64,000 bases of DNA from an uncultured Dehalococcoidia bacterium (GTDB lineage: Bacteria > Chloroflexota > Dehalococcoidia > Lucifugimonadales > UBA3495): NCBI GenBank assembly GCA_950072105.1, contig CATMOE010000002.1:79778-143777 (forward strand), given 5' to 3'. The translations under genes and the position numbers were made by a program. The notes beneath the pieces were generated by a model. It saw nothing but the letters and a program-made list of their open reading frames with translations, made no database searches and was not told the origin of the DNA. Of this stretch, positions 20,465 through 60,126 are shown in pieces. Each line of letters opens with the position of its first letter. The first letter of the stretch is position 1.

Positions 20465-22285
20465 TCACCGGTTAGAGCGGAAGATTCTGGAGAGGAAAGA
20501 AGGCTCCGTTGAGTCAGCAGTTCCCTCGTTTGTGGACGTCCCAATAGTGTCGGAACTATCCCCGTATTCGGAGGGTCCGGCAGGTTCGGGACCGGCTACG
20601 GATACGGCGGCAACAGGTTCGTCCTGGGATTCCTGAGGGGCCCAGCGGTCTTCTAAAACCTTCTCCACCAAGGGATGGGTGCGGTTCAGATAGAAAGTCC
20701 GCAAGCGCCTGCTGCGCCCCGACTCGCTGTCCGTGGCTGTGTGCCAACCTTTGGTGAACAGATCGGCGTTCCCCAGACTTCGGACCATCTTGGTAACGTA
20801 GGTCCGGGAAAAGTCCTGGCCCCAACGCTGAGTGATTTCCAGGTGCTCCGCTTTCAGCCCTTCGTCCAGTGCCTGGCAGACCTCGCTCACCAGGAAGTTG
20901 AAAGCCACGTGGCTGACGGCTTCTTGATGTTCCAGGGTGTCGGCCATGATGATAATGTCGGCTACCCGGCGGCCGTCCAAACCGTCCGGCTGGCTTGGCG
21001 GGAGGTTAAGTTGGGGAAGTGTCTCGGCTAGTATCGCGGCTAGTCCGTTGATCTGGGTGGTTTGCGGGACCGCGACAGCATCATCGCTGACGAATTCGCC
21101 GATGATTTTCGGGGATACATCTTCCGGAACATCCTGGGGAGCGTCGTCGGGCTCATCGTCAACGCTTCCAGCGGCCATTGTGGGTGACTCGACCGGTTGT
21201 TCGGTTGAATCATCCTCGGTTGAAACATCTTCAGCCGGTTCTTCCGGGGTCTCAGCGGCAGTCTCTTGCCGCTCTGGGGTCCTGCGCCGCCCAAAGGAGA
21301 AACGGCTTCGCTTGACTTCCGCTGGGCACTCGTCTGAGGAATCATCCTCTGCGCTTTGAGCACTATCTGATTCAGTGGCTTTGGCGTCCGCAGGGGTCTC
21401 TTCGTCGGCCATGATGGCCCAATCGACCAGTCCAGCGGTTATCAGCCGGATGTTTCCTTCCTGGGCCACACGGGACATGAGCTTTTTGAAACCGGAAAAA
21501 CCGACTTTTTTCTCGTCGAAGTCGGGGTAGCGGCGCAATAGTCGTTGTTTGATCGACGTGAGCAGGGGCGTGCCCCCGGCCTGACGCTCGGTGCGGATAA
21601 TATCTTCGATCGCCGAGATGATCGCCGCCAGATCCTGCTTGCCGACAGGCGCACTTGGCCGGGCGGGACCGCGTCCGCCGGTTGCCGGAGGTGGCTCCGA
21701 CGGGGCACGGGCGCCGGTGCCGGTTGCCGCAGCCGGCTCCTCTGGGACAACGGTGTCGATGTCTTGGTCGTAGAGGATAAGGGCGTCCACCGTGTCGGCG
21801 AACCGGCGGGACGTGGCCCAGGAAACGCCGATGATAATCACCCGCTTGCCCATGGTCCGCAAGGCGTTGATCACGTGGATGAAATCCGAGTCGCCTGAAA
21901 CCAGAACGTAAGTGCCGATGTTGGGGTAGGAGTGGGCGATCTCGATGCAGTCGGCGGTCATTTTAACGTCGACGCTGTTCTTCACCCTGGTGGTGCGAGA
22001 GGAGTTGCTGCCCAAAGCCAGACGGGTAGGCACGTAGACGGGCTCGATACCCGCGGCGTAGAGGGCAGGAGGGTCGTTGATGAACTGGCTGGCGCCCCGC
22101 AGTTCGGGGGCGCGGGTTACCCAGTCGGCATAGGCTTTAGCTACCACCACCCGGCCGTGGTTGGAAACCTCTTCCTTCAGGGCGGAGACGTTGGGAGTCC
22201 GGTGGCCCACCGCCAGGCTGATCTTAAAGTTCTCCCAATCGATAAAAAGGGCTACGTCGTCGCCGGAGTGTATAGGTCCGTTCAT
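20465..22285 (-). CDS. NYN (LabA/DUF88) ribonuclease domain + OST-HTH/LOTUS domain + acidic linker + C-terminal domain
   Basis: ALFIDWEN, AYADW, KNSVDVKM, LVSGDSDF, GKRVIIIG; LOTUS-like YPDFDEKKVGFSGFKKLM. Confidence 0.88.
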   Translation of the reverse strand: MNGPIHSGDDVALFIDWENFKISLAVGHRTPNVSALKEEVSNHGRVVVAKAYADWVTRAPELRGASQFINDPPALYAAGIEPVYVPTRLALGSNSSRTTRVKNSVDVKMTADCIEIAHSYPNIGTYVLVSGDSDFIHVINALRTMGKRVIIIGVSWATSRRFADTVDALILYDQDIDTVVPEEPAAATGTGARAPSEPPPATGGRGPARPSAPVGKQDLAAIISAIEDIIRTERQAGGTPLLTSIKQRLLRRYPDFDEKKVGFSGFKKLMSRVAQEGNIRLITAGLVDWAIMADEETPADAKATESDSAQSAEDDSSDECPAEVKRSRFSFGRRRTPERQETAAETPEEPAEDVSTEDDSTEQPVESPTMAAGSVDDEPDDAPQDVPEDVSPKIIGEFVSDDAVAVPQTTQINGLAAILAETLPQLNLPPSQPDGLDGRRVADIIIMADTLEHQEAVSHVAFNFLVSEVCQALDEGLKAEHLEITQRWGQDFSRTYVTKMVRSLGNADLFTKGWHTATDSESGRSRRLRTFYLNRTHPLVEKVLEDRWAPQESQDEPVAAVSVAGPEPAGPSEYGDSSDTIGTSTNEGTADSTEPSFLSRIFRSNR

Positions 22286-33521: not shown

Positions 33522-34124
33522 GTGCTACGGTCGCTATTCGGAAAAGGGAAGAAAAAAGGCGACGGCTCTCCCTCTTCGCAAGATGACAGTATCCGGGCGG
33601 CAAAGGTTGGGGACGTCGTTTCCATCTCCGGGCTGCGGCTGGAATACGACGATGTGTACTTTTTCATCGAGAAGATAAACCGCTACTCCAGTGAGACTGA
33701 GACTTGGTATGAGGCGCTGTGCGTGGATGGCGATAATCAAGTGTGGATCGATTGGACTGATGGTCACGATCTCACGGTAACAGCCACCGATGATCCTGAA
33801 CCGGTAGGTCTGGGGAGCATTGGGACTACGGAAGAAGAGTTGATTCAACTGGACGAAGAACACTCCATCGACAATTTCATCGAGGTTGAAGGGGACAAGT
33901 ACTATTACCGGAACAGTACCGAAGTGACGTTCTACCAGGACAATCGTGGCCAAGGCGAGGGATTTTATAATTGGGACTTGGTCCACGAGGATGGTGAACA
34001 CGTCTTATCCGTGTCCAAGTGGGAAGGGAAGCCTTTCGAGGCTACGTTCAGCGAGGTGATATCACCGGATAGGATCGTCTTATACAAAGGGGACCGCGGG
34101 GACGCTGGGAAAGGGAGGAAATAA
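33522..34124 (+). CDS. DUF4178-family protein
   Basis: KVGDVVSI..W.E..WIDW..IEVEGDKYYY..YNWD..LSVSKWEG pattern; translationally coupled to a DUF350 gene. Confidence 0.7.
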   Translation: MLRSLFGKGKKKGDGSPSSQDDSIRAAKVGDVVSISGLRLEYDDVYFFIEKINRYSSETETWYEALCVDGDNQVWIDWTDGHDLTVTATDDPEPVGLGSIGTTEEELIQLDEEHSIDNFIEVEGDKYYYRNSTEVTFYQDNRGQGEGFYNWDLVHEDGEHVLSVSKWEGKPFEATFSEVISPDRIVLYKGDRGDAGKGRK

Positions 34125-35026
34125 TGATTGAGAGCATTATCGACACGCTGCAGGCATTCCCACGGGGGCTAGTGTTCGTTGGGTTGGGGTTGGTGGTACT
34201 TCTACTGGCCAAACTGGCGCGAGACTTGATAACGCCATACAAGATCGATCAGGAAGTCGGCGAAAAACAGAATCTAGCGGTGTCTTTGCGGCTGACCGGA
34301 TACCTTGCCGGAGTGATTCTGGTTTTCCTGGGTGCGTTATATCAAAGTCCGACGCTGGTAGGCCCTGAAGGGCTGGGATTCGACCAAGCCTTTGGACAAG
34401 AGGTATTAAGGGTCTTCATTTACTCTCTAGCCGGGATAGTTGCGTTGAACCTGGTTCGGCTGGTGATGGACCGGGTGATACTGTACAAGTTCAAGCTAGA
34501 GGAAGAAGTGGTGCGGGGGCAAAACGTGGGCGCCGGGGCCGCTGAGTTGGGCATGTACGTGGCCACGGGACTGATGATTGCCGGTGCGATTTCCGGCGAT
34601 GCAGCCGGCACGGAGCTCAATGCGGCGTTGATCGCCCTGGCGTTCTTCGGGCTCGGATTGGCATTGCTGGTGGTATTCGCTCTGTTCTATCAGATCACCA
34701 CGCCCTACGATATACACTCGGAGATAGAGGGCAGCAATACTGCGGTGGGTGTCGCCTTCGGTGGCAACTTGGTCGCGATCGGCCTGGTGACCTTTAAAGC
34801 CCTTTTCGGGGATTTTACCGGGTGGGGCGAAAGTATCGCGGCGTTCCTCACATTCGGAATAATCGGGTTTGTTTTGCTATACGTGATGCGGTTTCTGATC
34901 GATCTGCTTCTACTGCCCAAATTCAACGTCTCCCAGGCTCTGGCGAATGGACGGAACGTGGGTGTCGCTGTCATTGAAAGCGGGGTGGTAATCAGCGCGG
35001 CATTGATCCTGTTTCTGGCGATCTGA
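34124..35026 (+). CDS. Tandem DUF350 (YjfL-like) membrane protein
   Basis: Repeated ITPYxIxxEI/V...NxAVG(V/L) units in a hydrophobic multi-TM protein. Confidence 0.85.
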   Translation: MIESIIDTLQAFPRGLVFVGLGLVVLLLAKLARDLITPYKIDQEVGEKQNLAVSLRLTGYLAGVILVFLGALYQSPTLVGPEGLGFDQAFGQEVLRVFIYSLAGIVALNLVRLVMDRVILYKFKLEEEVVRGQNVGAGAAELGMYVATGLMIAGAISGDAAGTELNAALIALAFFGLGLALLVVFALFYQITTPYDIHSEIEGSNTAVGVAFGGNLVAIGLVTFKALFGDFTGWGESIAAFLTFGIIGFVLLYVMRFLIDLLLLPKFNVSQALANGRNVGVAVIESGVVISAALILFLAI

Positions 35027-37189: not shown

Positions 37190-40100
37190 CTAGTTCCTCC
37201 TTGTCGATCCCGAATCCCCAGCCAGGGCCATTGGCCGGTCCGCTATGAGTGTTTGTACGTCGTCGTTCAACTGAACTTTAGGTGTAGAGAGGGCGTATCC
37301 CTTGGCCGAAGGGAAGGCAAATAGGCGAAACATGAACTCGGCGTTCACCCGCTCCCAGAAGCCTTGCCACGCTTGAAAACTACGTTGGATGTAGAGGGCC
37401 ACCGCCGATTTGTGGTCGGTGGACGCCAGCAGTTGGTTGGAGATAGAGTCCTGCAACTCGACGATGTGCGCCTTCCAAATCTCGTCGCAGGCCTTCAAGT
37501 AGATCGAACGGGCCAGGGCGGCATACTCTTTGGCGCCCTGGCTACTCTCCAGATCTGCCATTCTGTCGATGAACAAGTGGCCAAGTTCTTCGGGAAGGAT
37601 GTTCATGTCCCATCCCCTCAGTGAGGAGCAATCGACTTGGTAGTCCAGTTGAACTTCTTCAACCAGCCGGTCGAACTGGGCATCGTATTCTTCCAAAGTG
37701 ACCTGGGGAAAGTGGGCGGACACGAGTTCAATAGCCCTTTCCTGGGCCTGATCGCGCCAGAGAGATGGACCGGAGCCCGGTGAACCGGCAACGGCTACTT
37801 CCCCGCGCCGCCGGTAAAACAATCTGGTCTGGTGGTCCAGCACCGAGGCGTAATCCTGTACCAAGGCGCGTTGGGTCTCGCCCTCATGTTCGGCGATACC
37901 TTGCACCTCTTGAACGTGCCGGTCGACGTCTTGGCCCGAATAGTAGGTTCGGCCCATTCCATCCAAGTCGCGGCGCTTGGTCAGCTTGAGCACGCCGTCC
38001 ACGTGAAGGTTAAGCAACCGGTCTTCCAAGGACAGGAAAGTTTGGGACACACCGAAGCTGCCTTGACGGCCGCTGCGGCCGTTCAGTTGGAGGTCGATTC
38101 GCGGAGTATCGTTGAGTTCGGTGCCAATCACCCGAAGACCTAAAGCGAAGTCCAGCGATCGCGGCTTGGCGGTAATGCCTGAGGTGTCATGGAGCCGAAC
38201 GGTGAGCCTGAGGCCGTTCGGGGAACCCTCTTTTTCTACGCGAAGGCCGGAATCGGCTAGCAGTAGAGATTTCAAGACGCTGAACTCCCGGGGAGACAGG
38301 CAGTTGATCTCAACGGAGCCGTCTTCTCGCTCGAGAGTCTGGTGGACCAATCTGATGCAACGCTGGGCGATCTGGCCGTCTAAGCCCGGCGCCAGCAGGA
38401 TGTCGGTACCCCGGCCGGCCATGTTGGTTGCTACCGTGGCCGCGCCGAAGGAGCCGGCATTCCTGATGATTTCCGCTTCGGTGTCCGAATTGACGGCGTT
38501 GAGCAGGTTATGAGGAATCGCTTTATCCGAGAGCATTCGGCTGATCTCTTGGGATTGCTCCACCGTGAGGGTCCCCACCAGGACCGGCTGTCCCAGTTCA
38601 TGACTGGAGATCACCTGATCGATGATCGCCGAAGTTTTTTCAGCGTCGGTGAGATAGACCCGATAGCCAAGATCCACTCGTTGCAGGGGATGCATCGGCG
38701 GCAGCACGGTTACCGGTAAACCGTACTTCTGCTGAAATTCGTCCTGGGAACCGATGGCGGTGCCGGTCATTCCGCAAAGAGATTGGAACTGCTTGACGAA
38801 CCCTTCAACGGAGATATGACCCAGGGTTTCACCCTCCGGATTGGGAGTAAGCCCTTCTTTGGCTTCCAGAGCGGGCTGCAGGCCGTGCTGGTAGATGGCG
38901 TCGGGCTTAGGCCGCCCCGTGGCTTTGTCGATAAGCACCAGTTGGTCCTCGGCCACCAGGTAATCCACGTCCCGCTCCAGCAGCAGGTAGGCCCGGAGCA
39001 TCTGATAAACCTGGTTGCCCAGATTGTATTGCCGGGCCAGGCGGGTGGTTAGGCTCGCCGCCTTCTTGCGGCGCTCTGCCAAGGGCATTTCGCGGTTGGT
39101 CCAAAGGGACTCCAGAGACTCCTCCATCGAACGGCCGTCGTAGAAAGGACCCAAACATTGGGTAAGGAAATCCCGGCCCTTTTCCGCCAGGGTAACGAAA
39201 CGTCTATCTGGGTCGATAACGTAATAAAGCTCCGATGTGAGGCCGGTCTGTTCCTGCTCAGCTTCAGATTTAATCTCTTTGAAGCGTCGGGGGTTGTCAC
39301 GTAATCGCTGCTCTAGGGCGGGGTTATCCGGTTCGGCTAGGAGCAGCTTGGCTAGGATGTGGGAGGCTCCATCTAGGCTCGTGTCCGGCCGGGCGAGTTC
39401 ACCCGCTAATTCCCGGACAACGTCCCTTTGCAGCCGAATCAGTTGGGTGACGGCCTTCTTCACTTTGGCCGTGGGACTACGGTTTCCCAGGGGAGCGCCG
39501 GATATAATCATCGGCGTTGACGCTTCGTCGATCAGCCCGTGATCCGCTTCGTCGATGATGGCCGCATCCAGCTTGCCTTGAACGCGGGACGAGGCGGTTG
39601 TCTTAAGATTGTCACGGAGATAGTCGAACCCCATCTCCCGCATAGTGCTGTAGACGATCGCCATCTGGTAGTTATATCTTCGTTCGTCGTCCTCCATGTA
39701 TTCGAGCACGGCCCCTACGGTGATGCCCAGTGACTGGTAAACGGGAGCCAGTAGGTCGGCGTCCCTGGCCGCCAGGTAATCGTTGGCGGTGATGACATAA
39801 ACTGAGGTCCCAGCCACGGCATGTAACACTGCCGGAAACGCCCCGGCGACGGTTTTGCCTTCGCCGGCGTTCATCTGGACGATATTTCCTTGAAATAGGT
39901 GCAGTCCAGCCAATAACTGCTCCTCGGTAGCTTCAAAGGTGAGATGCCCTTTCTCGTCTTGCCTTCGCAATGCTTGGTAAAACCCGGCGGGCATGGAGAT
40001 GTCCCAAGGCGGCCTAACTTGGATCTCCCGGTGCACCATTAACATGGCATCAACGATGGTCTGTTGATCGGGGCCGGTTGCGGCTGTCCCGGATGACCCT

Positions 40101-40450
40101 CGGGAGAGGTCTGCCGTTCGCCAACAGGTTTGCAGGGATTCAGGAAGGGATTTCCGGTCGAAGCCGGTGTCAAACAGCCGCCAGGCGCCAAGGCGGCGAC
40201 TGATGACCTCGCTAACGATGGCGAAGACTTCCGGCAGGACTTGACTGACGCTCGGATGCGGCGGACGTGTCCGTAGGCGCGCCATCGCGTCCTTGAGATC
40301 CGTGTCGGAATAGGCTGTTACGTCGTGCCGGCGAATCGCGTCCAAAACCGCCCGGCTGTCTTTCGGCGGCCCGAGCTTCGGATGTGAAGTCGGCGGTCCC
40401 TGGTTAACCGGCCCAAACGTCAATGCTGATGATCCCAACAAGGAATTCAC
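37190..40450 (-). CDS. Divergent SecA paralog (accessory SecA-like ATPase), no C-terminal zinc-binding motif
   Basis: QMNAGEGKT, TANDYLAARD, GFDYLRDN, IDEADHGLIDEASTPMIISG, GMTGTA, ATNMAGRGTDI, RIDLQLNGRSGRQG. Confidence 0.92.
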   Translation of the reverse strand: MNSLLGSSALTFGPVNQGPPTSHPKLGPPKDSRAVLDAIRRHDVTAYSDTDLKDAMARLRTRPPHPSVSQVLPEVFAIVSEVISRRLGAWRLFDTGFDRKSLPESLQTCWRTADLSRGSSGTAATGPDQQTIVDAMLMVHREIQVRPPWDISMPAGFYQALRRQDEKGHLTFEATEEQLLAGLHLFQGNIVQMNAGEGKTVAGAFPAVLHAVAGTSVYVITANDYLAARDADLLAPVYQSLGITVGAVLEYMEDDERRYNYQMAIVYSTMREMGFDYLRDNLKTTASSRVQGKLDAAIIDEADHGLIDEASTPMIISGAPLGNRSPTAKVKKAVTQLIRLQRDVVRELAGELARPDTSLDGASHILAKLLLAEPDNPALEQRLRDNPRRFKEIKSEAEQEQTGLTSELYYVIDPDRRFVTLAEKGRDFLTQCLGPFYDGRSMEESLESLWTNREMPLAERRKKAASLTTRLARQYNLGNQVYQMLRAYLLLERDVDYLVAEDQLVLIDKATGRPKPDAIYQHGLQPALEAKEGLTPNPEGETLGHISVEGFVKQFQSLCGMTGTAIGSQDEFQQKYGLPVTVLPPMHPLQRVDLGYRVYLTDAEKTSAIIDQVISSHELGQPVLVGTLTVEQSQEISRMLSDKAIPHNLLNAVNSDTEAEIIRNAGSFGAATVATNMAGRGTDILLAPGLDGQIAQRCIRLVHQTLEREDGSVEINCLSPREFSVLKSLLLADSGLRVEKEGSPNGLRLTVRLHDTSGITAKPRSLDFALGLRVIGTELNDTPRIDLQLNGRSGRQGSFGVSQTFLSLEDRLLNLHVDGVLKLTKRRDLDGMGRTYYSGQDVDRHVQEVQGIAEHEGETQRALVQDYASVLDHQTRLFYRRRGEVAVAGSPGSGPSLWRDQAQERAIELVSAHFPQVTLEEYDAQFDRLVEEVQLDYQVDCSSLRGWDMNILPEELGHLFIDRMADLESSQGAKEYAALARSIYLKACDEIWKAHIVELQDSISNQLLASTDHKSAVALYIQRSFQAWQGFWERVNAEFMFRLFAFPSAKGYALSTPKVQLNDDVQTLIADRPMALAGDSGSTRRN

Positions 40451-41515
40451 CTAACCCATTGCCTCCTGCAATCCCTGCCATGTATAGCGGTGCGAGCTGA
40501 TGTACACCAATAGGTCTCCAGGGGACAAAAATAGGTCTCCGAACTTGAAATGGGGCTTTTTATCCCGAATCACCCCAAGCAGGTTTATATCCTTGCTCAG
40601 TAGCTTCACGGCTACCTCTTGGTAGGTTAACCGCTCTCCAACCGGAGGGTCAACCATCGTGCTGGCCATTGTGCCTTCGACCTTATTGCTGGTCATGGCC
40701 TGGGCCAAGATGGTCACGCCCGGGTCCTGGGTTTCCTGGATCAAGAGATTGTTCGCCATATGTATCGTATAAACCAGGGAGACATCCGCCAAGTTGCTGA
40801 ACAAGAGCTCGTGACTGAGACTCAGACATTCGGCGACGACCCTCACGTGGGGGCTCAGGTGGTTGATCACCGAAGCTACCGACGCTACGACGCTGTCGCT
40901 GTTGGGATCGTCGTAATCGGTGCTCAGTATGATGGCCTTGGACGCCCTGCTGAGTTGGGCCCGTTGGTAAGTCTCTTGTTCGAGAGGAGAGCCACGGACG
41001 AAAGAGACGTTGGGGTGGCTGAATGGCAGGGTCTGTAATTTGTCGGTGATCACGACAATGTCAACTTTTTTGTGGTTGTTGTCGGAAACGAACTCCTCCA
41101 CGATGTGGCGGACCCTGGTCTCGTTCGGGAAATGGATGATTAGCAAATGATCTTTGGATTGCACGGTCGCCATACCGTTTTGCTCCCTCATGCGAAGGTC
41201 GAATATCCAGTCAACCAACATCCCGGCGGTAGTGGTAAAGGCCACCAAACCGACCAGAACGATAAAAAACACAGTTCCGATACGGGCGCCAACCGTAGAC
41301 GCGGACAGATCCCCGTATCCAATGGTTGTGATAGAGATGATGCTATACCAGAAACTGTCTCCGAGATTATATTCCGGGTGGACCGGGGCCTCGAAGTAAA
41401 AAAAAGTGAGGGCGTTCCCAATCACACTGGCAACCAGCACCGCGAACATGGACAGTAAGCCGAGGGTTCTCCTCCGCCGGATCCGGTGCATCAACCTTTT
41501 TATCGAATAAAACAT
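40451..41515 (-). CDS. 2-TM potassium channel with RCK/TrkA-N-like domain
   Basis: Selectivity filter TTIGYGD; cytoplasmic FVRGSP..RAQLSRASKAIIL. Confidence 0.92.
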   Translation of the reverse strand: MFYSIKRLMHRIRRRRTLGLLSMFAVLVASVIGNALTFFYFEAPVHPEYNLGDSFWYSIISITTIGYGDLSASTVGARIGTVFFIVLVGLVAFTTTAGMLVDWIFDLRMREQNGMATVQSKDHLLIIHFPNETRVRHIVEEFVSDNNHKKVDIVVITDKLQTLPFSHPNVSFVRGSPLEQETYQRAQLSRASKAIILSTDYDDPNSDSVVASVASVINHLSPHVRVVAECLSLSHELLFSNLADVSLVYTIHMANNLLIQETQDPGVTILAQAMTSNKVEGTMASTMVDPPVGERLTYQEVAVKLLSKDINLLGVIRDKKPHFKFGDLFLSPGDLLVYISSHRYTWQGLQEAMG

Positions 41516-41536: not shown

Positions 41537-42988
41537 TCACCGGTCCAGAGGGACCGGTGATTGGTTAAGTAGCTTCATGATGACTAGCCCTGCTTGATGG
41601 CCGGGGCCGTCGCACTCGTCCAGACGGGTCAAAAGATGTCCCCCAGCCCGCAAGATTTTATCGGTGACGGTCGGCTCAGATCGGCGGAACTCTTCTCCCA
41701 AATGCGAGTCCAGTGTCCAATCAGCGGTGACCGAACATTCCAGCCCGGCCCGCTGGGCAACATCCAGGTACTCCTGACGCTCCCTGCTGAACTCTTTTTC
41801 ACTCTTGAAGGCCAAAGGCATCACGTAGAATTCCCTGGACAGATACAATCCCAGTTCGTTATCGAATACTTGCATCAGGTCGGAGAAGGACACCCAGCCT
41901 TCCAGGGCGAAGAAAAAGTTTTCGGGAATATCCTGGGGCACGCGATGGTAGTAGAAATCTTCATCCGCCTCAACCATCTTCACCGTGACTGGAAGCTTTT
42001 TTTGGTAACCCAGGATGCGTTCCGCCGCGTCGTCCTTAAGGAATAAGAAGGGTATGTTCCCATTGGTGGCGTCCACTAAGACTTGAGTACCATCGATATC
42101 ATACAACAACGCCGTGTGCTGCCAGAATCGCATGTAACGCTTGGAAAAGCGAAAATCGAACGTGGTTAGAAGCTCCCGTAGTTTCTCGACAGGCACGGGG
42201 CCGGTAGCGTTTTCCCCGGCGATGATGTATTCCGACTGAAGTCCGTAGTGATCAGTGAGGAACTTCAGCGCCTGCACTTTTTCCGAGCAGATCGCCCCGG
42301 CGCCTTCCATGATGTTATCAATGGTCTCGTCTCCCGATTTGTAGACCAGTTTCTTGCCGATGAACCGGGAGTAGTTTTCAAATTGGGCATCCCAGATCGT
42401 TTTGGCCAGTCCTTTCAACAGCTTTATCTTGTGGCTGGTGGATCCCAGTTGAAGAATGGCATCGGTCTCGTGGCTGCCGAACTCGTGAATCAGGGAATCT
42501 CGCACGAATCCAGAGTATCTGGATTTGTTGCGGAGCCACTTGCGCCGATGGAAGCCCGTCCAATTGCGGCTGTATTGCAGGTTGATGCGGTCTATCGTTA
42601 AATCAACCACCGAAACGTCTTGACCCTCCACCTGAAGCTGGTGATTTGTGGGGACCTGGTCCAAAGCGAGGGACTCTTCGCCCTCTTTGAACGCCATACC
42701 GGAAAACATGTCCTTCAGTTCACCGGCGTCCGTGCTCAGGTAGACCAGGTCTTGCATCGCATAGAGGGCGGCGGCGGAGGGCTGGGTGATGCGGGATTCT
42801 TGAAGAAGTTGGCTGATGGGAGGTTGCTTCAGATATTTGTCCAGCAAGCCTCCTAAAGACAAATAGGCGTCGCCGGGGTCCATACGTAGAGTACATCTCC
42901 GGTTGGACACCGTGTCCCACAGTTGAAGGATCTGATTGTTGGTGTTTTCCACTAAGGGCGCAAACCCGCTGTTCTTAATCTTGATCAT
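41537..42988 (-). CDS. Transglutaminase/NAT-superfamily (Cys-His-Asp) enzyme with an unannotated N-terminal domain
   Basis: GAICSEK (C234), WQHTALLY (H291), VLVDATNG (D306). Confidence 0.7.
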   Translation of the reverse strand: MIKIKNSGFAPLVENTNNQILQLWDTVSNRRCTLRMDPGDAYLSLGGLLDKYLKQPPISQLLQESRITQPSAAALYAMQDLVYLSTDAGELKDMFSGMAFKEGEESLALDQVPTNHQLQVEGQDVSVVDLTIDRINLQYSRNWTGFHRRKWLRNKSRYSGFVRDSLIHEFGSHETDAILQLGSTSHKIKLLKGLAKTIWDAQFENYSRFIGKKLVYKSGDETIDNIMEGAGAICSEKVQALKFLTDHYGLQSEYIIAGENATGPVPVEKLRELLTTFDFRFSKRYMRFWQHTALLYDIDGTQVLVDATNGNIPFLFLKDDAAERILGYQKKLPVTVKMVEADEDFYYHRVPQDIPENFFFALEGWVSFSDLMQVFDNELGLYLSREFYVMPLAFKSEKEFSRERQEYLDVAQRAGLECSVTADWTLDSHLGEEFRRSEPTVTDKILRAGGHLLTRLDECDGPGHQAGLVIMKLLNQSPVPLDR

Positions 42989-43038: not shown

Positions 43039-44268
43039 TTATACGGCAGCGTGAGGTCCCAAGCCCCACCGGGCGGCGTATTGATCGAAAGTGAACGTGC
43101 TCTTCTGAACGAACTCCCCTTGGGTGGTTAACGCGTAAACCGATGGGAGGCCGATGCCGTTGAACGCGTGGGCCTTGGTCATCGTGTACGATCCGGCATT
43201 GTTGAATATTACCTTGTCGCCAACCTTCAGCGGGTCCTGGAACCGGTATTCACCTAAGATGTCTCCGGCCAGACAAGTGCATCCAGCCAGCAGATATTTG
43301 TGGGGAGCGTCGTCGTCGTGGCCGACCACGTCGGGCTCGAAATCGTATTCGAATACCTCCGGCATGTGATTGATGCTCGTGTCCAGCACGGCCAACATCG
43401 AACCCTCACTGGGGAATACGTCCAGAACCGTGGACACGATGTACCCGGCGGCTCGGATGAGAGCGGACCCGGGTTCAAAGAACACGTCCACTTTAAGGCG
43501 AGCTTTGAGAAAATCCAAAGCCTGGTGCAGACCGTCAAGGTTTTGCCCGTCCTCGAATAGATAGCCACCACCCAAATTGATCCATTCGAGGTTCTCCAGG
43601 ATGCTACTGGCGCTGGAGTAGAGGTGGCGCACCGTGGAGAGCAACTCGCCGAAGTTGGGCGAGTCGCAGTTTGAGTGGAACAGGATGCCTCGGACCCCAG
43701 CCAGGCGGGCCGGGTCGTCATGGAACGCGGCCACCAGGTCTTCCAAGGGAACGCCCAGCTTCGATGCGGGCCGGCAAGGGTCGTAGCGCTCGTCGCCCAG
43801 GAAAGAAAGTTGAGGATTTACCCTCAGCCCACAGCTGGCGCTATCTTTGATGCGGTCGCGGTACATGTCCCATTGGCTCAGGGAGTTGAATGACACGTAG
43901 TCGCATAGGGAGCCGATCTCCTCTACTTCATCGCTCCTTAGGCCAGGCGCCGTGATGTGAAGGGTGCCGCCGCTCGTATTGGCTTTTTGAGCCAGTTTGG
44001 CTTCGAAAAGGGAGCTCACAGCGAATCCGTCCAGGCGTGGGGACATGAGCTTCAAAGCATCGACGAAGGAGAAGGACTTTATCGCGAACAGTACCTGGCA
44101 CCGGCCTTCTTGGCGCAGCCGATCGGCATGGGTGAGGAGTTGGTCGAGGACTGCCTCGTCGTATACGAAGGCCGGAGTAGAGATGTGGGCAAGGCCGCCG
44201 GGAAAGGCTTTGGCGTCGTCCAAAAGGGAGGAAGGCGTTGAATTTGCGCCGGCCTGTTTGGTACTCAT
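43039..44268 (-). CDS. nspC: Carboxynorspermidine/carboxyspermidine decarboxylase
   Basis: TPAFVYD, LFAIKS (PLP Lys), RVNP..YDPC..SKLG, FHSNC, WINLGGG, EPG, HMPEV, GCTCLAGD, YTMTK..FNG. Confidence 0.88.
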   Translation of the reverse strand: MSTKQAGANSTPSSLLDDAKAFPGGLAHISTPAFVYDEAVLDQLLTHADRLRQEGRCQVLFAIKSFSFVDALKLMSPRLDGFAVSSLFEAKLAQKANTSGGTLHITAPGLRSDEVEEIGSLCDYVSFNSLSQWDMYRDRIKDSASCGLRVNPQLSFLGDERYDPCRPASKLGVPLEDLVAAFHDDPARLAGVRGILFHSNCDSPNFGELLSTVRHLYSSASSILENLEWINLGGGYLFEDGQNLDGLHQALDFLKARLKVDVFFEPGSALIRAAGYIVSTVLDVFPSEGSMLAVLDTSINHMPEVFEYDFEPDVVGHDDDAPHKYLLAGCTCLAGDILGEYRFQDPLKVGDKVIFNNAGSYTMTKAHAFNGIGLPSVYALTTQGEFVQKSTFTFDQYAARWGLGPHAAV

Positions 44269-44354
44269 TGAACGTACATGCACGCCATAGACGTTAGGGA
44301 GTGTTTCTAAGATTGAGGAATGGGAGGGTGGTTGATGGGTATTTTAACATACGG

Positions 44355-44468: not shown

Positions 44469-45872
44469 CTACACCCTGGTTTGCTGGCCGGGTATGCCTG
44501 ATCCGGCGATGCCATTGGTGTTGCCGGACGGCGTTTCCGCCGATGCGCCTTGGGAGTTTTCCACGGTGACCGGGTTGATAGGGCGCCGGACGGAGTTGGG
44601 AGCGATTCCCGCTTTTAAGGCGGACATGACGCCGGCCGCCTCCCAATAGTTATCAACGATGTGAAGTTGCCCCTGCTGCCAGGGTAGTTGGGTCAGGTTG
44701 TTTCTCATGAGGTTTCGGTTTTCCCGCACGGCGATGACCGGGATGCCCTGTTCCAGCGCGGCCAGGGTGGGCAGGCCCAGGCATCCGTCGGGTATCACCA
44801 AGCAAGAAACGGCACTAGCGGTGAACACGCCGGGATTTCGGAGTGCTTCTCGATCGGTGACGATTCTGGGGCTTTTTTGTAGGCCCTTGAGGATGGACTG
44901 CAAGAAGGTGGTTGATATGGCTTCAGCGGCCATGCGGGGGTCGACGATGCCGGTGTCCGCGTCCAAGACTTCCTGGGACTCCATCATGGGGGAGTGGGCC
45001 GAGGGCACGTCGTAGATGCTGGAGATGGTGTGGGTAAGCATGGATTCCACGCCACCCCAGGGATTGACCATGCTGCCGCCGCTGTTGAAGTAGTCGCCGT
45101 GGTAGCTGGTGGGAACGGTTATGACCGACGATATGGCCACGGCGTCGTATTCCCCGCGGTGTCTGTCCAGCAGTTCAAGCACGTGTTCCAAGTCTTCCAC
45201 CCGTCCCGCCGCCCGGGACGATGAAGTGTACTCGGAGATCATCACAAGTGGCGGAGTCAACTCGATCACCAGTGGGCAGATCAGCCCATAGGATGCCCGG
45301 GCGGCGTTAACCGAGTTGACTGTCATTGTGTGAAATAGCCGGTCGGTATGCGAGTTCATCAGAACCAGGACACGGTTAGACCGAACCGGCTGCAACCCAG
45401 CCGTGCCCATCAGCAAACGGCAGATGACGCTGCCTTCCACGTATAGCCCGTTGCCCGGAATCTCGTTGATGTCCGAGGCGTTGACCACGTTTGGGTGGGT
45501 GACCAAAGTGTCGCAGACGGAGGCCAGCAGTTGAGCCACGGGCGTGGCATCACCGGCGTGCCCCCCGATTTCAGCGCCTATCCCGGTTGGTACCAGCAGG
45601 ATGGCGTTGAAGCTCCCGGTATTTTCCACTTGGCGGTGGCGAAATTCCAGGATGGAGTTATTGGGCAACCGGCTGGAATCGTTGCCGTCATCGAAGGTTG
45701 TGACCTCGCACCGGTATCCGGTGGCGTCCGAAGACGTGACCACCAACCGCACTGGCGAGACTCCACCGGGCAACTTTTCTCGTGTCTTCTGGGACAGCCA
45801 TTCCAATAGGTTGCTGCTGTCCGGCGGCGGGGGTAGATCGAGTCCAATTTCCGAAAGCATCACGGATTTCAA
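44469..45872 (-). CDS. DUF3326-family protein with an N-terminal extension
   Basis: VPTGIGAEIGGHAGDA, THPNVVNAS, LYVEG, NPWGGVE..TH, PSAHSP, DPRMAAE, IAVREN. Confidence 0.85.
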   Translation of the reverse strand: MKSVMLSEIGLDLPPPPDSSNLLEWLSQKTREKLPGGVSPVRLVVTSSDATGYRCEVTTFDDGNDSSRLPNNSILEFRHRQVENTGSFNAILLVPTGIGAEIGGHAGDATPVAQLLASVCDTLVTHPNVVNASDINEIPGNGLYVEGSVICRLLMGTAGLQPVRSNRVLVLMNSHTDRLFHTMTVNSVNAARASYGLICPLVIELTPPLVMISEYTSSSRAAGRVEDLEHVLELLDRHRGEYDAVAISSVITVPTSYHGDYFNSGGSMVNPWGGVESMLTHTISSIYDVPSAHSPMMESQEVLDADTGIVDPRMAAEAISTTFLQSILKGLQKSPRIVTDREALRNPGVFTASAVSCLVIPDGCLGLPTLAALEQGIPVIAVRENRNLMRNNLTQLPWQQGQLHIVDNYWEAAGVMSALKAGIAPNSVRRPINPVTVENSQGASAETPSGNTNGIAGSGIPGQQTRV

Positions 45873-51427: not shown

Positions 51428-52215
51428 GCATGAAAAAATCTGACGCGAATCATTTGTTAGTGGCCACCGGAATCTCCAAGAGTTTTGGGCGAGTCCAAGC
51501 CCTGGCTCCGTTGAGTTTGACGATATCCCAAGGGGAGCGGGTGGCCTTGGCCGGTCCGAGCGGTAGCGGCAAGACCACCCTGCTGTACCTGCTGGCCGGC
51601 ATCATCCAGCCCGATGCCGGGGAGCTGCTCCTGGCGGGACAAGACCTGGCGCGCCAGCGGCCGGGTAAAGAGAAAGCAGGCCTGGTGGGCCTGATACACC
51701 AGCAATACGACCTAGTGCCACATCTCTCGGTGGTGCACAACGTTCTGGCTGGGCGGTTGGGCCAGTGGAGCTTGTTCCGATCGATGATTTCCCTAGTTTG
51801 GCCCCAAGACCGCCAAGTGGCGGAAGAAGCCCTGGCCCAGATGGGTATCGCCGACAAGATTCACGAGCGAACGTCCCACCTTTCCGGGGGCGAACAGCAG
51901 CGGGTGGCCATCGCCCGGCTGATGGTCCAGGGGTCGCGCGTTATCCTGGCCGATGAGCCGGTTTCCTCGCTGGACCCGGTCCGGGCAGATGACATATTGG
52001 AGATTTTGACGGCTTTGGCCGGTGGCTCCGGCAAGACCCTTATCGCCAGTATCCACTCGCCCAGTTTGATGCGCAAACACTTTACCCGGGTCATTGGTCT
52101 GCGGGAAGGACGGCTGGAGTTTGACGTCCCGGCGGCGGAGGTAACGGACCGGGCATTGGAACGGCTCTACGATCTGGACCAGTCGGAAGCGGCTGTATGG
52201 GGAGGCGGGAACTGA
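51424..52215 (+). CDS. PhnC-like ABC ATPase
   Basis: GPSGSGKT, NVLAGRLG, LSGGEQQRVAIAR, ILADEPVSSLDP. Confidence 0.9.
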   Translation: MSMKKSDANHLLVATGISKSFGRVQALAPLSLTISQGERVALAGPSGSGKTTLLYLLAGIIQPDAGELLLAGQDLARQRPGKEKAGLVGLIHQQYDLVPHLSVVHNVLAGRLGQWSLFRSMISLVWPQDRQVAEEALAQMGIADKIHERTSHLSGGEQQRVAIARLMVQGSRVILADEPVSSLDPVRADDILEILTALAGGSGKTLIASIHSPSLMRKHFTRVIGLREGRLEFDVPAAEVTDRALERLYDLDQSEAAVWGGGN

Positions 52216-52994
52216 AACTCCTGGAAAGCCGCCGGCTGTTGACCCTGTTGCTGGCCGGGGTCTTTCTGTGGAGCCTATCCACCGTCGATTGGCGGGGGCC
52301 GCTGATCCATACAGGCGGACTTGGCGCGTTCTTGGATTTTCTCGCTTCTCTCTTTCCTCCAGAGCTGTCTCCCGGGTTTCTTGGGCTGGCTCTGTCCGCC
52401 AGTTGGAAAACCTTAGCTTACGCCGTGGCGGGAATCACTTTGGCGGTGCTCATTGGATTTCCTTTGGGTGTGATTGCCTCTGGGTCCGTGTCTGGCTCGC
52501 CCAGAATGGGCTTGGGACTGGCGGTGGCGGTGCGGTTGATCCTGGCGGCCATGCGCTCGATACATGAACTGGTTTGGGCGGTATTGTTCGTCGCCGCCTT
52601 TGGGTTGTCGTCAATGACAGTGATACTGGCCTTGGCATTGCCCTATGGGGGCATACTTGGGCGGATCTACGGGGAGTTGTTCAACCAAGTGCCGGAGGGA
52701 CCGTTGCGCGCCCTCCGGGCGTCCGGGGCCTCCCCTTTCCGGGTGCTTCTGTACGGACGGCTGCCCATGGCTTTGCCAGATATGCTGGGCTACACCTTTT
52801 ACCGCTTGGAGTGCGCCATCCGGTCGGCGGCAATCATGAGCTTTGTCGGCATACGGGGTCTGGGCTACGAGATACAGCTATCCCTGCACGACCTGCTGTT
52901 CGACGAGGTGTGGACGCTACTTTTGTTCATGGTGGGGATGGTGGTGTTGGTCGATATGTGGAGCAGTCGGGTGCGGCGGAGTTTGGTGTCTTGA
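52197..52994 (+). CDS. PhnE-like ABC permease
   Basis: RSIHELVWA, GILGRIYGE, ALRASGAS, YRLECAIRS. Confidence 0.88.
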   Translation: MGRRELKLLESRRLLTLLLAGVFLWSLSTVDWRGPLIHTGGLGAFLDFLASLFPPELSPGFLGLALSASWKTLAYAVAGITLAVLIGFPLGVIASGSVSGSPRMGLGLAVAVRLILAAMRSIHELVWAVLFVAAFGLSSMTVILALALPYGGILGRIYGELFNQVPEGPLRALRASGASPFRVLLYGRLPMALPDMLGYTFYRLECAIRSAAIMSFVGIRGLGYEIQLSLHDLLFDEVWTLLLFMVGMVVLVDMWSSRVRRSLVS

Positions 52995-53875
52995 TGGGAA
53001 ACGCCCCAGCGTTCCGCCTCTTCAGAGGCCGACGGCGCCCGATGACCTTTGTCCGTGCCTCCCTGTACGGGTTCGTAGTCCTGGCGTTTGTGTCCTGGGG
53101 TTACATCTTGGTGGTTACCGATAGCGGAGCGGCCGACTTAGTTTCGGCCAAGACTTGGAGCAACGCGGGCAATTTTATCCGGCAGTTGATCGGCGTTGAC
53201 TCGCCAACCCAGCCTGCCTATTTGGTAGTTGACCGCTGGTTGGTCACGGGGAGACTTGCCCTGGATACTCTGGCGATGAGCGTTCTGGCAATCGTTCTGA
53301 CCGGCGTCGCCGTGCTGCCGACATTCTTGCCCGGGGCCCGCAACGTCAGCAACGGCGACTTGGGCGGCGCACCATCCCGGTTGGGGACCCTTTTCTACCA
53401 TGTATTGCGTCTGGCCTTCACCCTGACACGGGCAGTGCCGGAACTGGTGTGGGCCATGGTGATCGTCTTTTTTCTATCGCCGGGCATCGTGCCGGGGGCC
53501 GTGGCCTTGGCGGTGCATAACTACGGAGTGGTTGGACGCCTTTCGGCGGAAGTGGTGGAAAACCTGGACCCCGGTCCCGCCAAGGCGCTTCGGTCCGCCG
53601 GGGCCAGCAACCTTCAGATGCTGATCTACAGCATCTTCCCCCAAGCCCTCCCGCACTTCCTCACCTACCTGCTTTACCGATGGGAGGTAATCATACGGAC
53701 CACTGTGGTGGTGGGCTTTGTCAGCGCCGGAGGGTTGGGCCGGGAGTTTCGGTTAAGCCTAAGCTTCTTTCACTACACCGACCTGGCGTTGTTAATCATG
53801 TGGTACCTGATCTTGGTGATCGCCGTTGACCTGTTGAGCGCATGGCTCAGAAGGCTGGTGACCGGGAAGGGGTAA
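52994..53875 (+). CDS. Second PhnE-like ABC permease
   Basis: TGATG coupling at 52992-52996; RAVPELVWA, GRLSAEVVE, YRWEVIIR, GFVSAGGLG. Confidence 0.88.
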   Translation: MGNAPAFRLFRGRRRPMTFVRASLYGFVVLAFVSWGYILVVTDSGAADLVSAKTWSNAGNFIRQLIGVDSPTQPAYLVVDRWLVTGRLALDTLAMSVLAIVLTGVAVLPTFLPGARNVSNGDLGGAPSRLGTLFYHVLRLAFTLTRAVPELVWAMVIVFFLSPGIVPGAVALAVHNYGVVGRLSAEVVENLDPGPAKALRSAGASNLQMLIYSIFPQALPHFLTYLLYRWEVIIRTTVVVGFVSAGGLGREFRLSLSFFHYTDLALLIMWYLILVIAVDLLSAWLRRLVTGKG

Positions 53876-56690: not shown

Positions 56691-57926
56691 CTAAGAAATC
56701 AACCGGGGGATGCCGTCTCCCAAGGCGAAGCCGATGGCTGCCGAGACAGCGCCGATACCCAAAATCTCCAAGCCCTGTAAGATGGGCGACTTCTGCACCA
56801 GGCGGCCTTTGAGGCTTCCTAATACGAAGAGGGCCACCAGCGCACCCGCGACCGAGACCGATATCGCCGCCGTGCCGGTTAGCAAGATGTGAGGGATGAT
56901 AGGCACCGAGGCGGCCAACAGAAACGAGAGACCCATGGCGGCCGCGTCCTTCATAGGGTTGGACGTTTCGTCCGGGCTTATGCCCAGTTCTTTCTCCACC
57001 AAAGTCCTCAGCCATAGTTCCTTGTCTTCGGCGATCTCGTCGGCCATCCGGCGGGCTTCTTCGAAGGACCTTCCCTCCCGCTGATATATAACTACCAATT
57101 CGGCCAGTTCCTCGGCGGGCTTTTCCTCTATCTCTTGGGCCTCGCGGGCTATCTCCGCTCTTTGAACGTCCTGCTCGGCCCGGGATCCTAGATACGCTCC
57201 GGTGGCCATCGAGATCGTTCCGGCGGCGGCGGCAAGCCCGGCAACCAGGACTGCGGTTTGACTGTCCAGAGCCACGGCCACCGAGGTTACCAAGGCCACG
57301 GTGCTGAGAATTCCGTCTTGGGCGCCGAAGACAACCTCTCGGATCCGGCCCAACGAGGCGACCCGCCATCTCTCCCGGTCCAGCTCGATGGTGGCGTTGA
57401 CGAAGGTATCCAGGTCATTCGCGGCTACTGGAGCGAACTCGGCCCGTTCCCGGCCTAGGGTGTCTTCTACGGCTTCTGCCGTTGTTTCTGTCGCCGGCGA
57501 CGGTGGGGCAACGGCGACGGTTCGTCTGGCTTCCAACTGGTCCAGGGCCTGGGTAAATACCTCCAGGTGATGCCGCTCCCGCTCCATGGCCAAGGAGAAG
57601 GAATCCGCGGCGTCCTTGCGGCCTTCGTCCTGAGCGTCCCGGATCATCCGGGGATACATGGTGCTGAACTCTTTGGACTCGCCTTCAGTGACCGTGCGCA
57701 GGTTCTCCAGAGTGCTCTTGATGTCTCCGGAAACCCGGAGGTGGTTGAGGCCGTGAATGGTCTCGGCTCCGGCGACTTCCTGGAAGACTTGGGCGATCTC
57801 AGGAAGCCCTTCTTCCAGCGCGCGGTGGGCATAAGCGTTGTACTTCAGGTAGGCCAAGGCCTCATCGACGATGGCGCTTCACAGATTCTTTTCCGTCTTG
57901 GTCATGTTGGGGGTTTCTGAGGCCAT
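56691..57926 (-). CDS. Rubrerythrin/ferritin-like + VIT1/CCC1 fusion (MbfA-like metal exporter) with an in-frame TGA at codon 16
   Basis: RBS AAGGA, MASETPNMTKTEKNL-TGA-SAIVDEALAYLKY..ETIH..E..MYP..ERHH; VIT1 motifs REVVFGAQDG, SMATGAYLG, EKELG. Confidence 0.8.
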
Positions 57927-59355: not shown

Positions 59356-60126
59356 ATGACACAAGGCGGGGTTCCAACAACCAAAGCCGGGACCGGACGG
59401 ACCATAGGCAAAGCCGCGCTGGAACGGCTGTTGGTTGAAAGCGCTCCCGAGACGGGAGAACCGGCGTCGACGCTGTATCTGAGGCCCGGCGAGGGTCAGG
59501 AGTTCTTGGAATCCCTAGGCGCAACCGGGCAAGACTGGCGGGAGCGATTAACCAAGCTGAACGATTCGATCTTGGATTCCGGAACCGGGCTGGCCGTCCT
59601 GCGCTCCGGGGACCAGTGCCTGGTGGTAGCCCCGCCATTCCCTCTGCCGGAGAGCCTCTTTTTTTCTAGCTGGGACTTCTCCACATTGTTGCTGCTTTTG
59701 AAGTCTGAATTTACCCTGGGCGTGGTGTTGTTGCGCTTGGGACGTTCATCGGTGGCGGTGTATCGGGGGGAAAAGCTAATATCCTCCAAAACCGATGCCC
59801 GGTACGTGAAAGGAAGGCACCACGCCGGGGGCACCTCCCAGCTAAGGTTCCAGCGCATCCGCGAAGGCCAGATGAAGCTGATGTACGAGAAGACTTGCGA
59901 AGCGGTCCATAGTCAGTTCACTTCGATCGCCGGCGACTTGGACTACATGTTCCTGGGCGGCGAGAGATTTACCCTCAACGGTTTCCTGAAGATCTGTACT
60001 TATATGGAGAGATTCCGTTCCATCACGTTGGGCCGGCGCCTGAACATCAGGGACCCAAAACGTGATACGCTGGACCAAGTTGGGAGGCTCTTGCACGAAA
60101 GCCGAATCTACCAGTTTCAGTGGTAA
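59356..60126 (+). CDS. acVLRF1 (Vms1/ANKZF1-like) release-factor-fold protein
   Basis: GVVLLRLG..VAVY.G..LISSK...YVKGRHHAGGTSQLRFQRIREGQ, LGG. Confidence 0.85.
   Translation: MTQGGVPTTKAGTGRTIGKAALERLLVESAPETGEPASTLYLRPGEGQEFLESLGATGQDWRERLTKLNDSILDSGTGLAVLRSGDQCLVVAPPFPLPESLFFSSWDFSTLLLLLKSEFTLGVVLLRLGRSSVAVYRGEKLISSKTDARYVKGRHHAGGTSQLRFQRIREGQMKLMYEKTCEAVHSQFTSIAGDLDYMFLGGERFTLNGFLKICTYMERFRSITLGRRLNIRDPKRDTLDQVGRLLHESRIYQFQW

Follow-up and report, generated by a model that had tools for sequence, protein, structure and literature searches.

Within a window of 64,000 nucleotides (nt) from an uncultured Dehalococcoidia bacterium (contig CATMOE010000002.1), we analyzed a SecA-like gene on the reverse strand at positions 37190-40450, whose product is a genuine second, strongly diverged SecA. 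The gene is an uninterrupted frame of 1086 codons, and the protein exceeds the cut-offs of all four SecA families of Pfam, SecA_DEAD (E 4.4e-73), P-loop_SecA (E 6.7e-50), SecA_PP_bind (E 2e-14) and SecA_SW (E 2.9e-11). It lies in an operon between a K+ channel gene and a lipoprotein gene (Table 1), and the zero-nt gaps to both that a first-pass annotation of this DNA had described are there in the junction sequence: the TAG stop of the channel gene directly abuts the GTG start of the SecA-like gene, whose own TAG stop directly abuts the ATG of the lipoprotein gene. An AGGAGG lies 6 nt upstream of that ATG, inside the SecA-like gene, and the presence of this Shine-Dalgarno sequence together with the abutting stop suggests that translation of the lipoprotein is coupled to that of the SecA-like protein. 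The lipoprotein gene in turn shares an ATGA overlap with the next gene, which encodes a protein of 366 amino acids (aa).

The positions of inserts were taken from an alignment with E. coli SecA and the canonical SecA of the same genome, and residue conservation from a 58-member alignment of the paralog family. The motifs quoted in the first-pass annotation (QMNAGEGKT, DEAD and ELNDTPRIDLQLNGR) are all found in the translation; the same is true of the insertions it placed before motif I (~83 aa) and in the second nucleotide-binding domain (NBD2, ~80 aa), and the alignment bears out its statement that the C-terminal Cys/His zinc motif is absent. It had not listed the inserts in the preprotein cross-linking domain (PPXD), of which there is one at the stem and another, also helical, at about residues 440-472 of the alignment. 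In the AlphaFold2 (AF2) model, the NBD2 insert is made up of the elements H690-708, E712-717, H720-732, E736-740, E748-753 and E764-768. Position 302 within Walker B is V in 30 members, A in 27 and I in 1. Residues R784, Q788, G791, R792, S793, R795, Q796 and G797 of motif VI are invariant in all 58, as are T562/G563, the core of TNMAGRGTDI (T675, A678-I684) and most of GRSGRQG. The motor residues are intact, and from this conservation the protein is predicted to be catalytically competent. The two-helix finger varies at residues 1009-1012 of its tip, and 57 of the 58 members keep H1013; the model places a loop at 1010-1012 between helices H973-1009 and H1013-1045. The model as a whole has a predicted local distance difference test score (pLDDT) of 79.7 and a predicted template-modeling score (pTM) of 0.74, and its best match in Foldseek is the substrate-engaged SecA of Bacillus subtilis (6itc_A), with a template-modeling score of 0.85 normalized to the target and a root-mean-square deviation of 5.1 Å.

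Table 1. Features of the SecA-like gene and of its neighbors, with the occurrence of neighboring genes at 14 loci of relatives (NBD1, first nucleotide-binding domain; PLP, pyridoxal phosphate).
Feature	Position	Strand	Basis or description	Relative loci	Identity to window copy
SecA-like paralog, 1086 aa	37190..40450	-	NBD1, PPXD, NBD2, helical scaffold and wing domains (Pfam, NCBIfam, AF2, Foldseek)		
NBD1 helical insert preceding Walker A, specific to the family (residues 90-172)	39935..40183	-	Alignment; model helices H104-118, H127-142, H155-164		
Walker A GEGKT (residues 196-200)	39851..39865	-	Invariant 58/58		
Walker B DEAD (residues 300-303)	39542..39553	-	D300, E301, D303 invariant 58/58		
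Helical insert at PPXD stem (residues 325-400), conserved motif LLLAxPDNP	39251..39478	-	Alignment, family conservation, model		
Alpha/beta insert in NBD2 (residues 690-770)	38141..38383	-	Alignment and model		
Motif VI RIDLQLNGRSGRQG (residues 784-797)	38060..38101	-	58-member alignment		
Two-helix finger tip ASTDHKSA (residues 1009-1016)	37403..37426	-	Aligns with E. coli RGYAQKDP		
Lipoprotein, 268 aa	36383..37189	-	Signal peptide, lipobox LIAAC, acidic domain, FLFxY hydrophobic stretch, Arg-rich tail	14/14	43-90%
Cytoplasmic protein, 366 aa	35286..36386	-	Beta-grasp (ubiquitin-like) domain, winged-helix domain, long C-terminal helix (AF2)	14/14	28-87%
K+ channel with RCK domain	40451..41515	-	Pfam Ion_trans_2 and Slo-like_RCK	9/14	49-92%
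Enzyme, 483 aa, putative Cys-His-Asp triad, N-acetyltransferase/transglutaminase-like	41537..42988	-	Invariant residues, weak Acetyltransf_2, Atlas	14/14	47-93%
Carboxynorspermidine-decarboxylase-like PLP decarboxylase	43039..44283	-	TIGR01047 E 1.6e-89, 300 bits, under cut-off of 409	9/14	44-93%
DUF3326 protein, probable polyamine-synthesis partner of the decarboxylase	44469..45872	-	Pfam E 1.2e-90	10/14	57-90%
DUF4178 protein, convergent with the SecA-like operon	33522..34124	+	Pfam E 2.4e-10	12/14	42-95%
DUF350 (YjfL family) membrane protein	34124..35026	+	Pfam E 1.2e-52, two repeats; 7-8 predicted transmembrane segments (hydropathy)	13/14	46-95%

When PF07517 was run against the complete set of contigs of the genome (4.08 Mb, 92% complete), it matched at two places, the SecA-like gene and a canonical secA on another contig. 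The canonical protein has 892 aa and carries the zinc tail, ending in CPCGSGKKYKRCHG; the two SecAs are ~40% identical, and this likeness is confined to the nucleotide-binding cores. The genome has one SecY (a single match to PF00344) and no second SecY was found with that family; Asp2 (TIGR03712) is likewise without a match, Asp1 and Asp3 not having been searched for. The first-pass annotation had described a second SecA without SecY2 or Asp proteins, which agrees with this picture, and a second SecA beside the canonical SecA1 with one SecY for both is the arrangement of the SecA2-only class. The protein itself falls in no curated SecA or SecA2 family, as its NCBIfam scores are all far under cut-off: 505.8 bits against 814 for SecA NF009538, 501.7 against 800 for SecA TIGR00963, 441.2 against 1085 for the Bacillus anthracis-type SecA2 TIGR04397, 416.4 against 930 for the SecA2 of the accessory Sec (aSec) system TIGR03714, 406.1 against 725 for the mycobacterial SecA2 TIGR04221, and 332 against 1100 for the Listeria SecA2 NF012136. 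In a sequence search of the PDB, the Clostridioides difficile SecA2 6t4h (360 bits) was tied with the B. subtilis SecA (355 bits).

A maximum-likelihood tree was built by a quick search under LG+C20 from 854 columns and 66 rows, comprising 15 paralogs, 21 canonical SecAs of the same order, 29 from the rest of the phylum, and E. coli, the sole outgroup and sole row from outside Chloroflexota. All 15 paralogs form one clade (Shimodaira-Hasegawa-like approximate likelihood ratio test, SH-aLRT, 100) whose stem measures 2.85 changes per column; with this single outgroup the clade falls outside all 50 canonical Chloroflexota SecAs (SH-aLRT 93). Paralog tip branches are as long as 1.6, where the median is 0.25, and the tree carries warnings of long branches and odd composition among the paralogs; since there is only one outgroup, the long paralog branch could be attracted towards the root. 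Groupings within the paralog subtree parallel the ones that the same genomes show for their canonical SecAs, which fits vertical descent with losses. The SecA-like gene is therefore neither the only secA of its genome nor grouped with the housekeeping SecAs of Chloroflexota, and the proposal of a separate accessory SecA lineage is supported: it is a second copy, scores under the cut-offs of all housekeeping and SecA2 models, and belongs to a clade of its own.

The canonical SecA is present in all 30 relatives that we sampled (the genome of the window included), and 15 of them also have the long paralog, with an open frame of 1028-1140 aa. With a threshold of E <= 1e-90, which may miss very distant members, a sample of 301 genomes from the window's order gave 82 with a paralog match, distributed patchily by family (for example 11/11, 13/14 and 5/5 genomes against 0/14 and 0/13), and a sample of 400 further genomes from the phylum, of which 394 lie outside the order, gave none. 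When 1.84 billion cluster representatives were searched, about 50 of the best 150 rows had the paralog signature, defined as A or S before GEGKT, a late Walker A and an absent zinc motif, and later rows look canonical. The matches bear the organism labels "Chloroflexota bacterium" and "Dehalococcoidia bacterium", and in the clusters of the 10 proteins looked up the sole named member is a 276-aa fragment called "preprotein translocase subunit SecA". A search of genome contigs with the SecA-like protein alone returned one near relative. No description of this SecA lineage was found in the main texts of the papers covered by the search.

Two observations concern the length of the frame in relatives. 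The nearest relative in the database, from a Dehalococcoidia bacterium and 92% identical, is recorded with 1317 aa, 231 aa longer than the window copy, and its start may have been called too far upstream. In one genus of the order the paralog match crosses one or two in-frame stops (TAA or TAG), with open frames of ~1300-1360 aa; the alignment may run on into the gene upstream, or the protein may be fused or longer there.

We took 14 loci from relatives for comparison with the neighborhood in the window, giving 15 loci with the window's own. The genes for the 483-aa protein, optionally the K+ channel, the SecA-like protein, the lipoprotein and the 366-aa protein follow one another in this order, tail-to-tail with the DUF4178-DUF350 pair, and the order is kept at all 14 relative loci, where the lipoprotein and the 366-aa and 483-aa proteins are never missing. 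This larger module, with DUF350/DUF4178, the putative Cys-His-Asp enzyme, the polyamine pair and sometimes PspA, had escaped the first-pass annotation. Presence across genomes tells the same story, as the paralog, the lipoprotein and the 483-aa protein occur in exactly the same 15 of the 30 relatives, and DUF350 in 16, namely the 15 paralog carriers and one genome that is 89% complete. The SecA-like gene is thus a fixed part of a lineage-specific module in one order of marine Chloroflexota. A PspA/IM30 gene (Pfam E 3.2e-27) stands beside DUF4178 at 6 of the 15 loci; the genome of the window has a single PspA, ~88 kb away on the same contig. At 4 of the 15 loci, two extra genes lie beside the K+ channel gene, between the SecA-like and 483-aa genes, one of ~425 aa with a weak AMP-binding match and the other of ~280 aa without a Pfam match, and two of these four loci also have a ~230-aa gene.

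Among the soluble products of the operon, the lipoprotein alone carries a signal peptide. Its lipobox is conserved, and its acidic domain of ~110 aa, with 22 Asp+Glu against 11 Lys+Arg, is followed by the short, conserved FLFxY stretch and a tail of ~100 aa that has 23 Lys+Arg and not one acidic residue in the window copy. Among the 120 homologs listed, 95 could be parsed, and their tails have medians of 17 Arg, 2 Lys and 1 Asp+Glu. Considered as a membrane span, the FLFxY stretch is short, its ~12 residues not reaching the 19-residue hydropathy threshold. The lipoprotein has no Pfam match, and in a set of 250 further genomes from the phylum none matched it at E <= 1e-5. Its acidic domain is 72-88% identical to the window copy in all 120 homologs listed; the SecA-like homologs that seem to come from these same contigs show only ~46-59% identity, so that among the matches listed the motor is the less conserved of the two.

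In the 483-aa family, C234, H291 and D306 are invariant, 5 of 14 members have weak Acetyltransf_2 matches, and the leads from Atlas are N-acetyltransferase and transglutaminase-like clusters; it is from these three lines that we read the protein as an N-acetyltransferase/transglutaminase-like enzyme. The window copy has no Pfam match even at E up to 10, and the family profile gave only chance-level rows among PDB sequences (E 0.27 and 0.59). For the decarboxylase and its DUF3326 neighbor, a 2026 preprint (10.64898/2026.06.12.731819) reports that PavA, such a decarboxylase, and PavB, a DUF3326 protein, are both required to make a polyamine. The 366-aa protein has an AF2 model with a pLDDT of 85.5 that resembles ubiquitin-like and winged-helix folds at only middling VIA-align Z scores of 6-7.3; Foldseek gave no PDB match at E <= 0.001 and the Atlas search no usable match. 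A hit to LRAT (E 0.069, in 1 of 15 members) was taken as chance. When residues 30-685 of the SecA-like protein and residues 23-366 of the 366-aa protein were submitted to complex prediction, the score was 0.00 with "no answer", which is uninformative either way. Pfam scans of the operon revealed no M50 or HlyD match among the neighbors of the SecA-like gene, and no glycosyltransferase.

The operon is also represented in RNA libraries. Of the words sampled from the 7.7-kb operon, six metatranscriptome runs contain 41-74%; contigs from four of these runs, belonging to four studies, cover the SecA-like gene at 95-100% identity, and in each of these four runs at least one contig bridges the junction between the SecA-like and lipoprotein genes.

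We tentatively favor the explanation that the paralog serves as an ATP-driven polypeptide motor dedicated to the lipoprotein of its own module, working through the single SecYEG. The motor would act on the lipoprotein that is translated directly after it, and it would operate on the one SecYEG of the genome as in SecA2-only systems. The lipoprotein is the candidate cargo because it is the only exported product of the module, and its Arg-rich tail, with almost no acidic residues along ~100 aa, provides a rationale: such a tail would be a poor ordinary Sec substrate, as the passage of arginine is reported to limit Sec transport (Allen et al. 2022, PMC9110029). The first-pass annotation had proposed that the SecA exports or remodels the adjacent lipoprotein or other operon products; the link to the lipoprotein stands by gene context, since every one of the 15 carriers has the two genes side by side and both occur in the same 15 genomes among the 30 relatives, and export or remodeling is what this context alone would suggest. 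What the data show is the identity of the protein, its status as a second copy, the conservation of its motor residues, its joint inheritance with the module and its presence in RNA libraries; its substrate, its use of SecYEG and the direction of its work are inferred.

Several points weigh against this explanation. Features by which canonical SecA contacts SecY and the membrane are altered in the paralog. The position equivalent to Tyr794 is variable (H in 15, R in 12, L in 11 and S in 8 of the 58 members), and this tyrosine is reported to contribute to high-affinity SecYEG binding while being dispensable for translocation (Whitehouse et al. 2012, PMC3518217). Residues 1-28 lack conservation and are disordered in the model, and the C-terminal helical domains, scaffold and wing, are the most diverged, with only 22-27% identity to canonical SecA. 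The signal peptide of the lipoprotein looks ordinary, so the housekeeping SecA could serve it, and by the positive-inside rule an Arg-rich tail after a hydrophobic stretch may remain cytoplasmic, which would make export unnecessary. The cover in RNA libraries consists of contigs without a silent-region control, and carried-over DNA is possible. The changed fingertip, N-terminus and C-terminal domains, together with a tail whose charge pattern is compatible with the cytoplasm, would suit a paralog that works independently of SecY, as an ATP-driven unfoldase, chaperone or remodeler that is either cytoplasmic or placed at the membrane's inner face; this is the main rival reading, and we consider it rather unlikely. 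Its targets might be the cytoplasmic Arg-rich tail of the lipoprotein, the DUF350 membrane protein or a PspA-type assembly, and PspA does stand beside the module at 6 of 15 loci. The paralog would then take the place of the chaperone-PspA pairs that are exchangeable for other modules in related polyamine-linked operons with DUF350, DUF4178 and lipoproteins, as described by Ravi et al. (2024, PMC11237479). However, the paralog retains the complete SecA architecture, including the PPXD and the two-helix finger, which a pure chaperone would not obviously need, and the hydrophobic stretch of the lipoprotein is short for a membrane span. We also know of no SecA-family protein that works without SecY.

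A broader role is that of a general auxiliary SecA with a wider set of substrates, for example under envelope stress, like the SecA2 of mycobacteria or Listeria. SecA2-only systems export several unrelated substrates, and the single SecY of the genome would be shared by any SecA; we nevertheless regard this as improbable, since all 15 carriers show the gene in exact co-occurrence with the module and in a fixed order within it, and half of the relatives have lost paralog and module jointly, both of which point to a role specific to the module. The possibility that the gene is a decaying or non-functional secA duplicate, to which the long stem and tip branches and the low scores with all curated models might point, is practically negligible, as the frame is open over 1086 aa, all 58 members share the same catalytic residues, 82 of the 301 genomes sampled from the order have retained the gene, with a subtree congruent to that of canonical SecA, and it is present in RNA libraries. 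A bolder and quite improbable extension of the dedicated-motor explanation would make the whole module an export pathway coupled to modification of its cargo. The decarboxylase/DUF3326 pair would produce a polyamine, the putative Cys-His-Asp enzyme would use it in the cytoplasm to modify the Arg/Ser/Gln-rich tail of the lipoprotein, and the SecA would drive this polycationic, otherwise Sec-refractory tail across the membrane, possibly as a stress-triggered switch of tail topology tied to the K+ channel and PspA. If true, this would be a Chloroflexota counterpart, assembled from unrelated parts, to the export of glycosylated serine-rich adhesins by accessory Sec systems.

Elsewhere in the window we observed several genes that belong to other subjects. 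On the forward strand, an acVLRF1 gene ("Actinobacteria/chloroflexi VLRF1 release factor", E 2.6e-22) at 59356-60126 lies immediately upstream of a gene at 60182-62578 for a MutS2-type protein with MutS_V and Smr domains, a pairing that suggests ribosome rescue. On the reverse strand, a single open reading frame (ORF) at 56691-57857 combines rubrerythrin and VIT1 iron-transporter domains, and a 606-aa protein encoded at 20465-22285 has an N-terminal NYN nuclease domain followed by ~430 residues without a Pfam match. In a phosphonate-type ABC transporter operon, two forward ORFs at 52197-52994 and 52574-53875, both BPD_transp_1, overlap by ~420 nt in different frames, probably owing to an over-long ORF call or else to a frameshift.

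To our knowledge, accessory SecAs are known almost only from Gram-positive pathogens. The Chloroflexota lineage would be a further, independent accessory SecA lineage in free-living marine bacteria, with a motor tied to genes for polyamine synthesis, a K+ channel and membrane stress rather than to virulence cargo. It would also offer a natural experiment in the re-tooling of the SecA motor, with its three inserts, altered fingertip and lost zinc tail, in the handling of arginine-rich sequences at the membrane, and in the role of the widespread, uncharacterized DUF350/DUF4178/lipoprotein modules.

Among known systems, the housekeeping SecA shares with the paralog the four Pfam domains, all motor motifs and the predicted fold. 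The paralog differs in scoring under the cut-offs, in not being the sole copy, in its place outside the canonical Chloroflexota clade, in its three inserts, and in lacking the zinc tail and a conserved fingertip tyrosine. The SecA2-only systems of Mycobacterium, Listeria, C. difficile and Bacillus resemble it in having a second SecA beside SecA1 without a second SecY and in missing the zinc-binding tail, and the C. difficile SecA2 6t4h is its best PDB match, if only a tied one. However, the window protein scores under all SecA2 cut-offs and is larger than SecA1 (1086 against 892 aa) owing to the three inserts in NBD1, PPXD and NBD2. Its host belongs to Chloroflexota and not to the Gram-positive pathogens, and its gene sits in a fixed operon with the lipoprotein, the Cys-His-Asp enzyme and the polyamine and DUF350 genes.

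The aSec system of streptococci and staphylococci consists of SecA2-SecY2, Asp1-3 and glycosyltransferases. The window shares with it a dedicated SecA encoded beside its presumed cargo and a cargo-modifying type of enzyme, and in both cases the cargo has a low-complexity, serine-rich region; unlike aSec, the genome has one SecY, no match to Asp2 and no glycosyltransferase in the operon, and the SecA-like protein reaches 416 of the 930 bits of the aSec SecA2 model. The closest likeness in gene content is with the PspA/polyamine-linked operons of Ravi et al. (2024, mSystems, PMC11237479), which contain DUF350, DUF4178, lipoproteins and, in one group, a ligand-gated K+ channel. The word SecA does not occur in the main text of that paper (0 occurrences), and the decarboxylase-like/DUF3326 pair and the Cys-His-Asp enzyme here replace the spermine-synthase fusion or ATP-grasp ligase described there. 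The lipoproteins of those operons are of the Ctha_1186 or DUF1190 type, and that of the window has no Pfam match. What the two have in common is a DUF350 of the 8-transmembrane type, DUF4178, a lipoprotein, a K+ channel with a cytoplasmic ligand-binding domain and polyamine enzymes; PspA accompanies the window-type module at 6 of 15 loci, and DUF350 and DUF4178 are present at 13 and 12 of the 14 relative loci.

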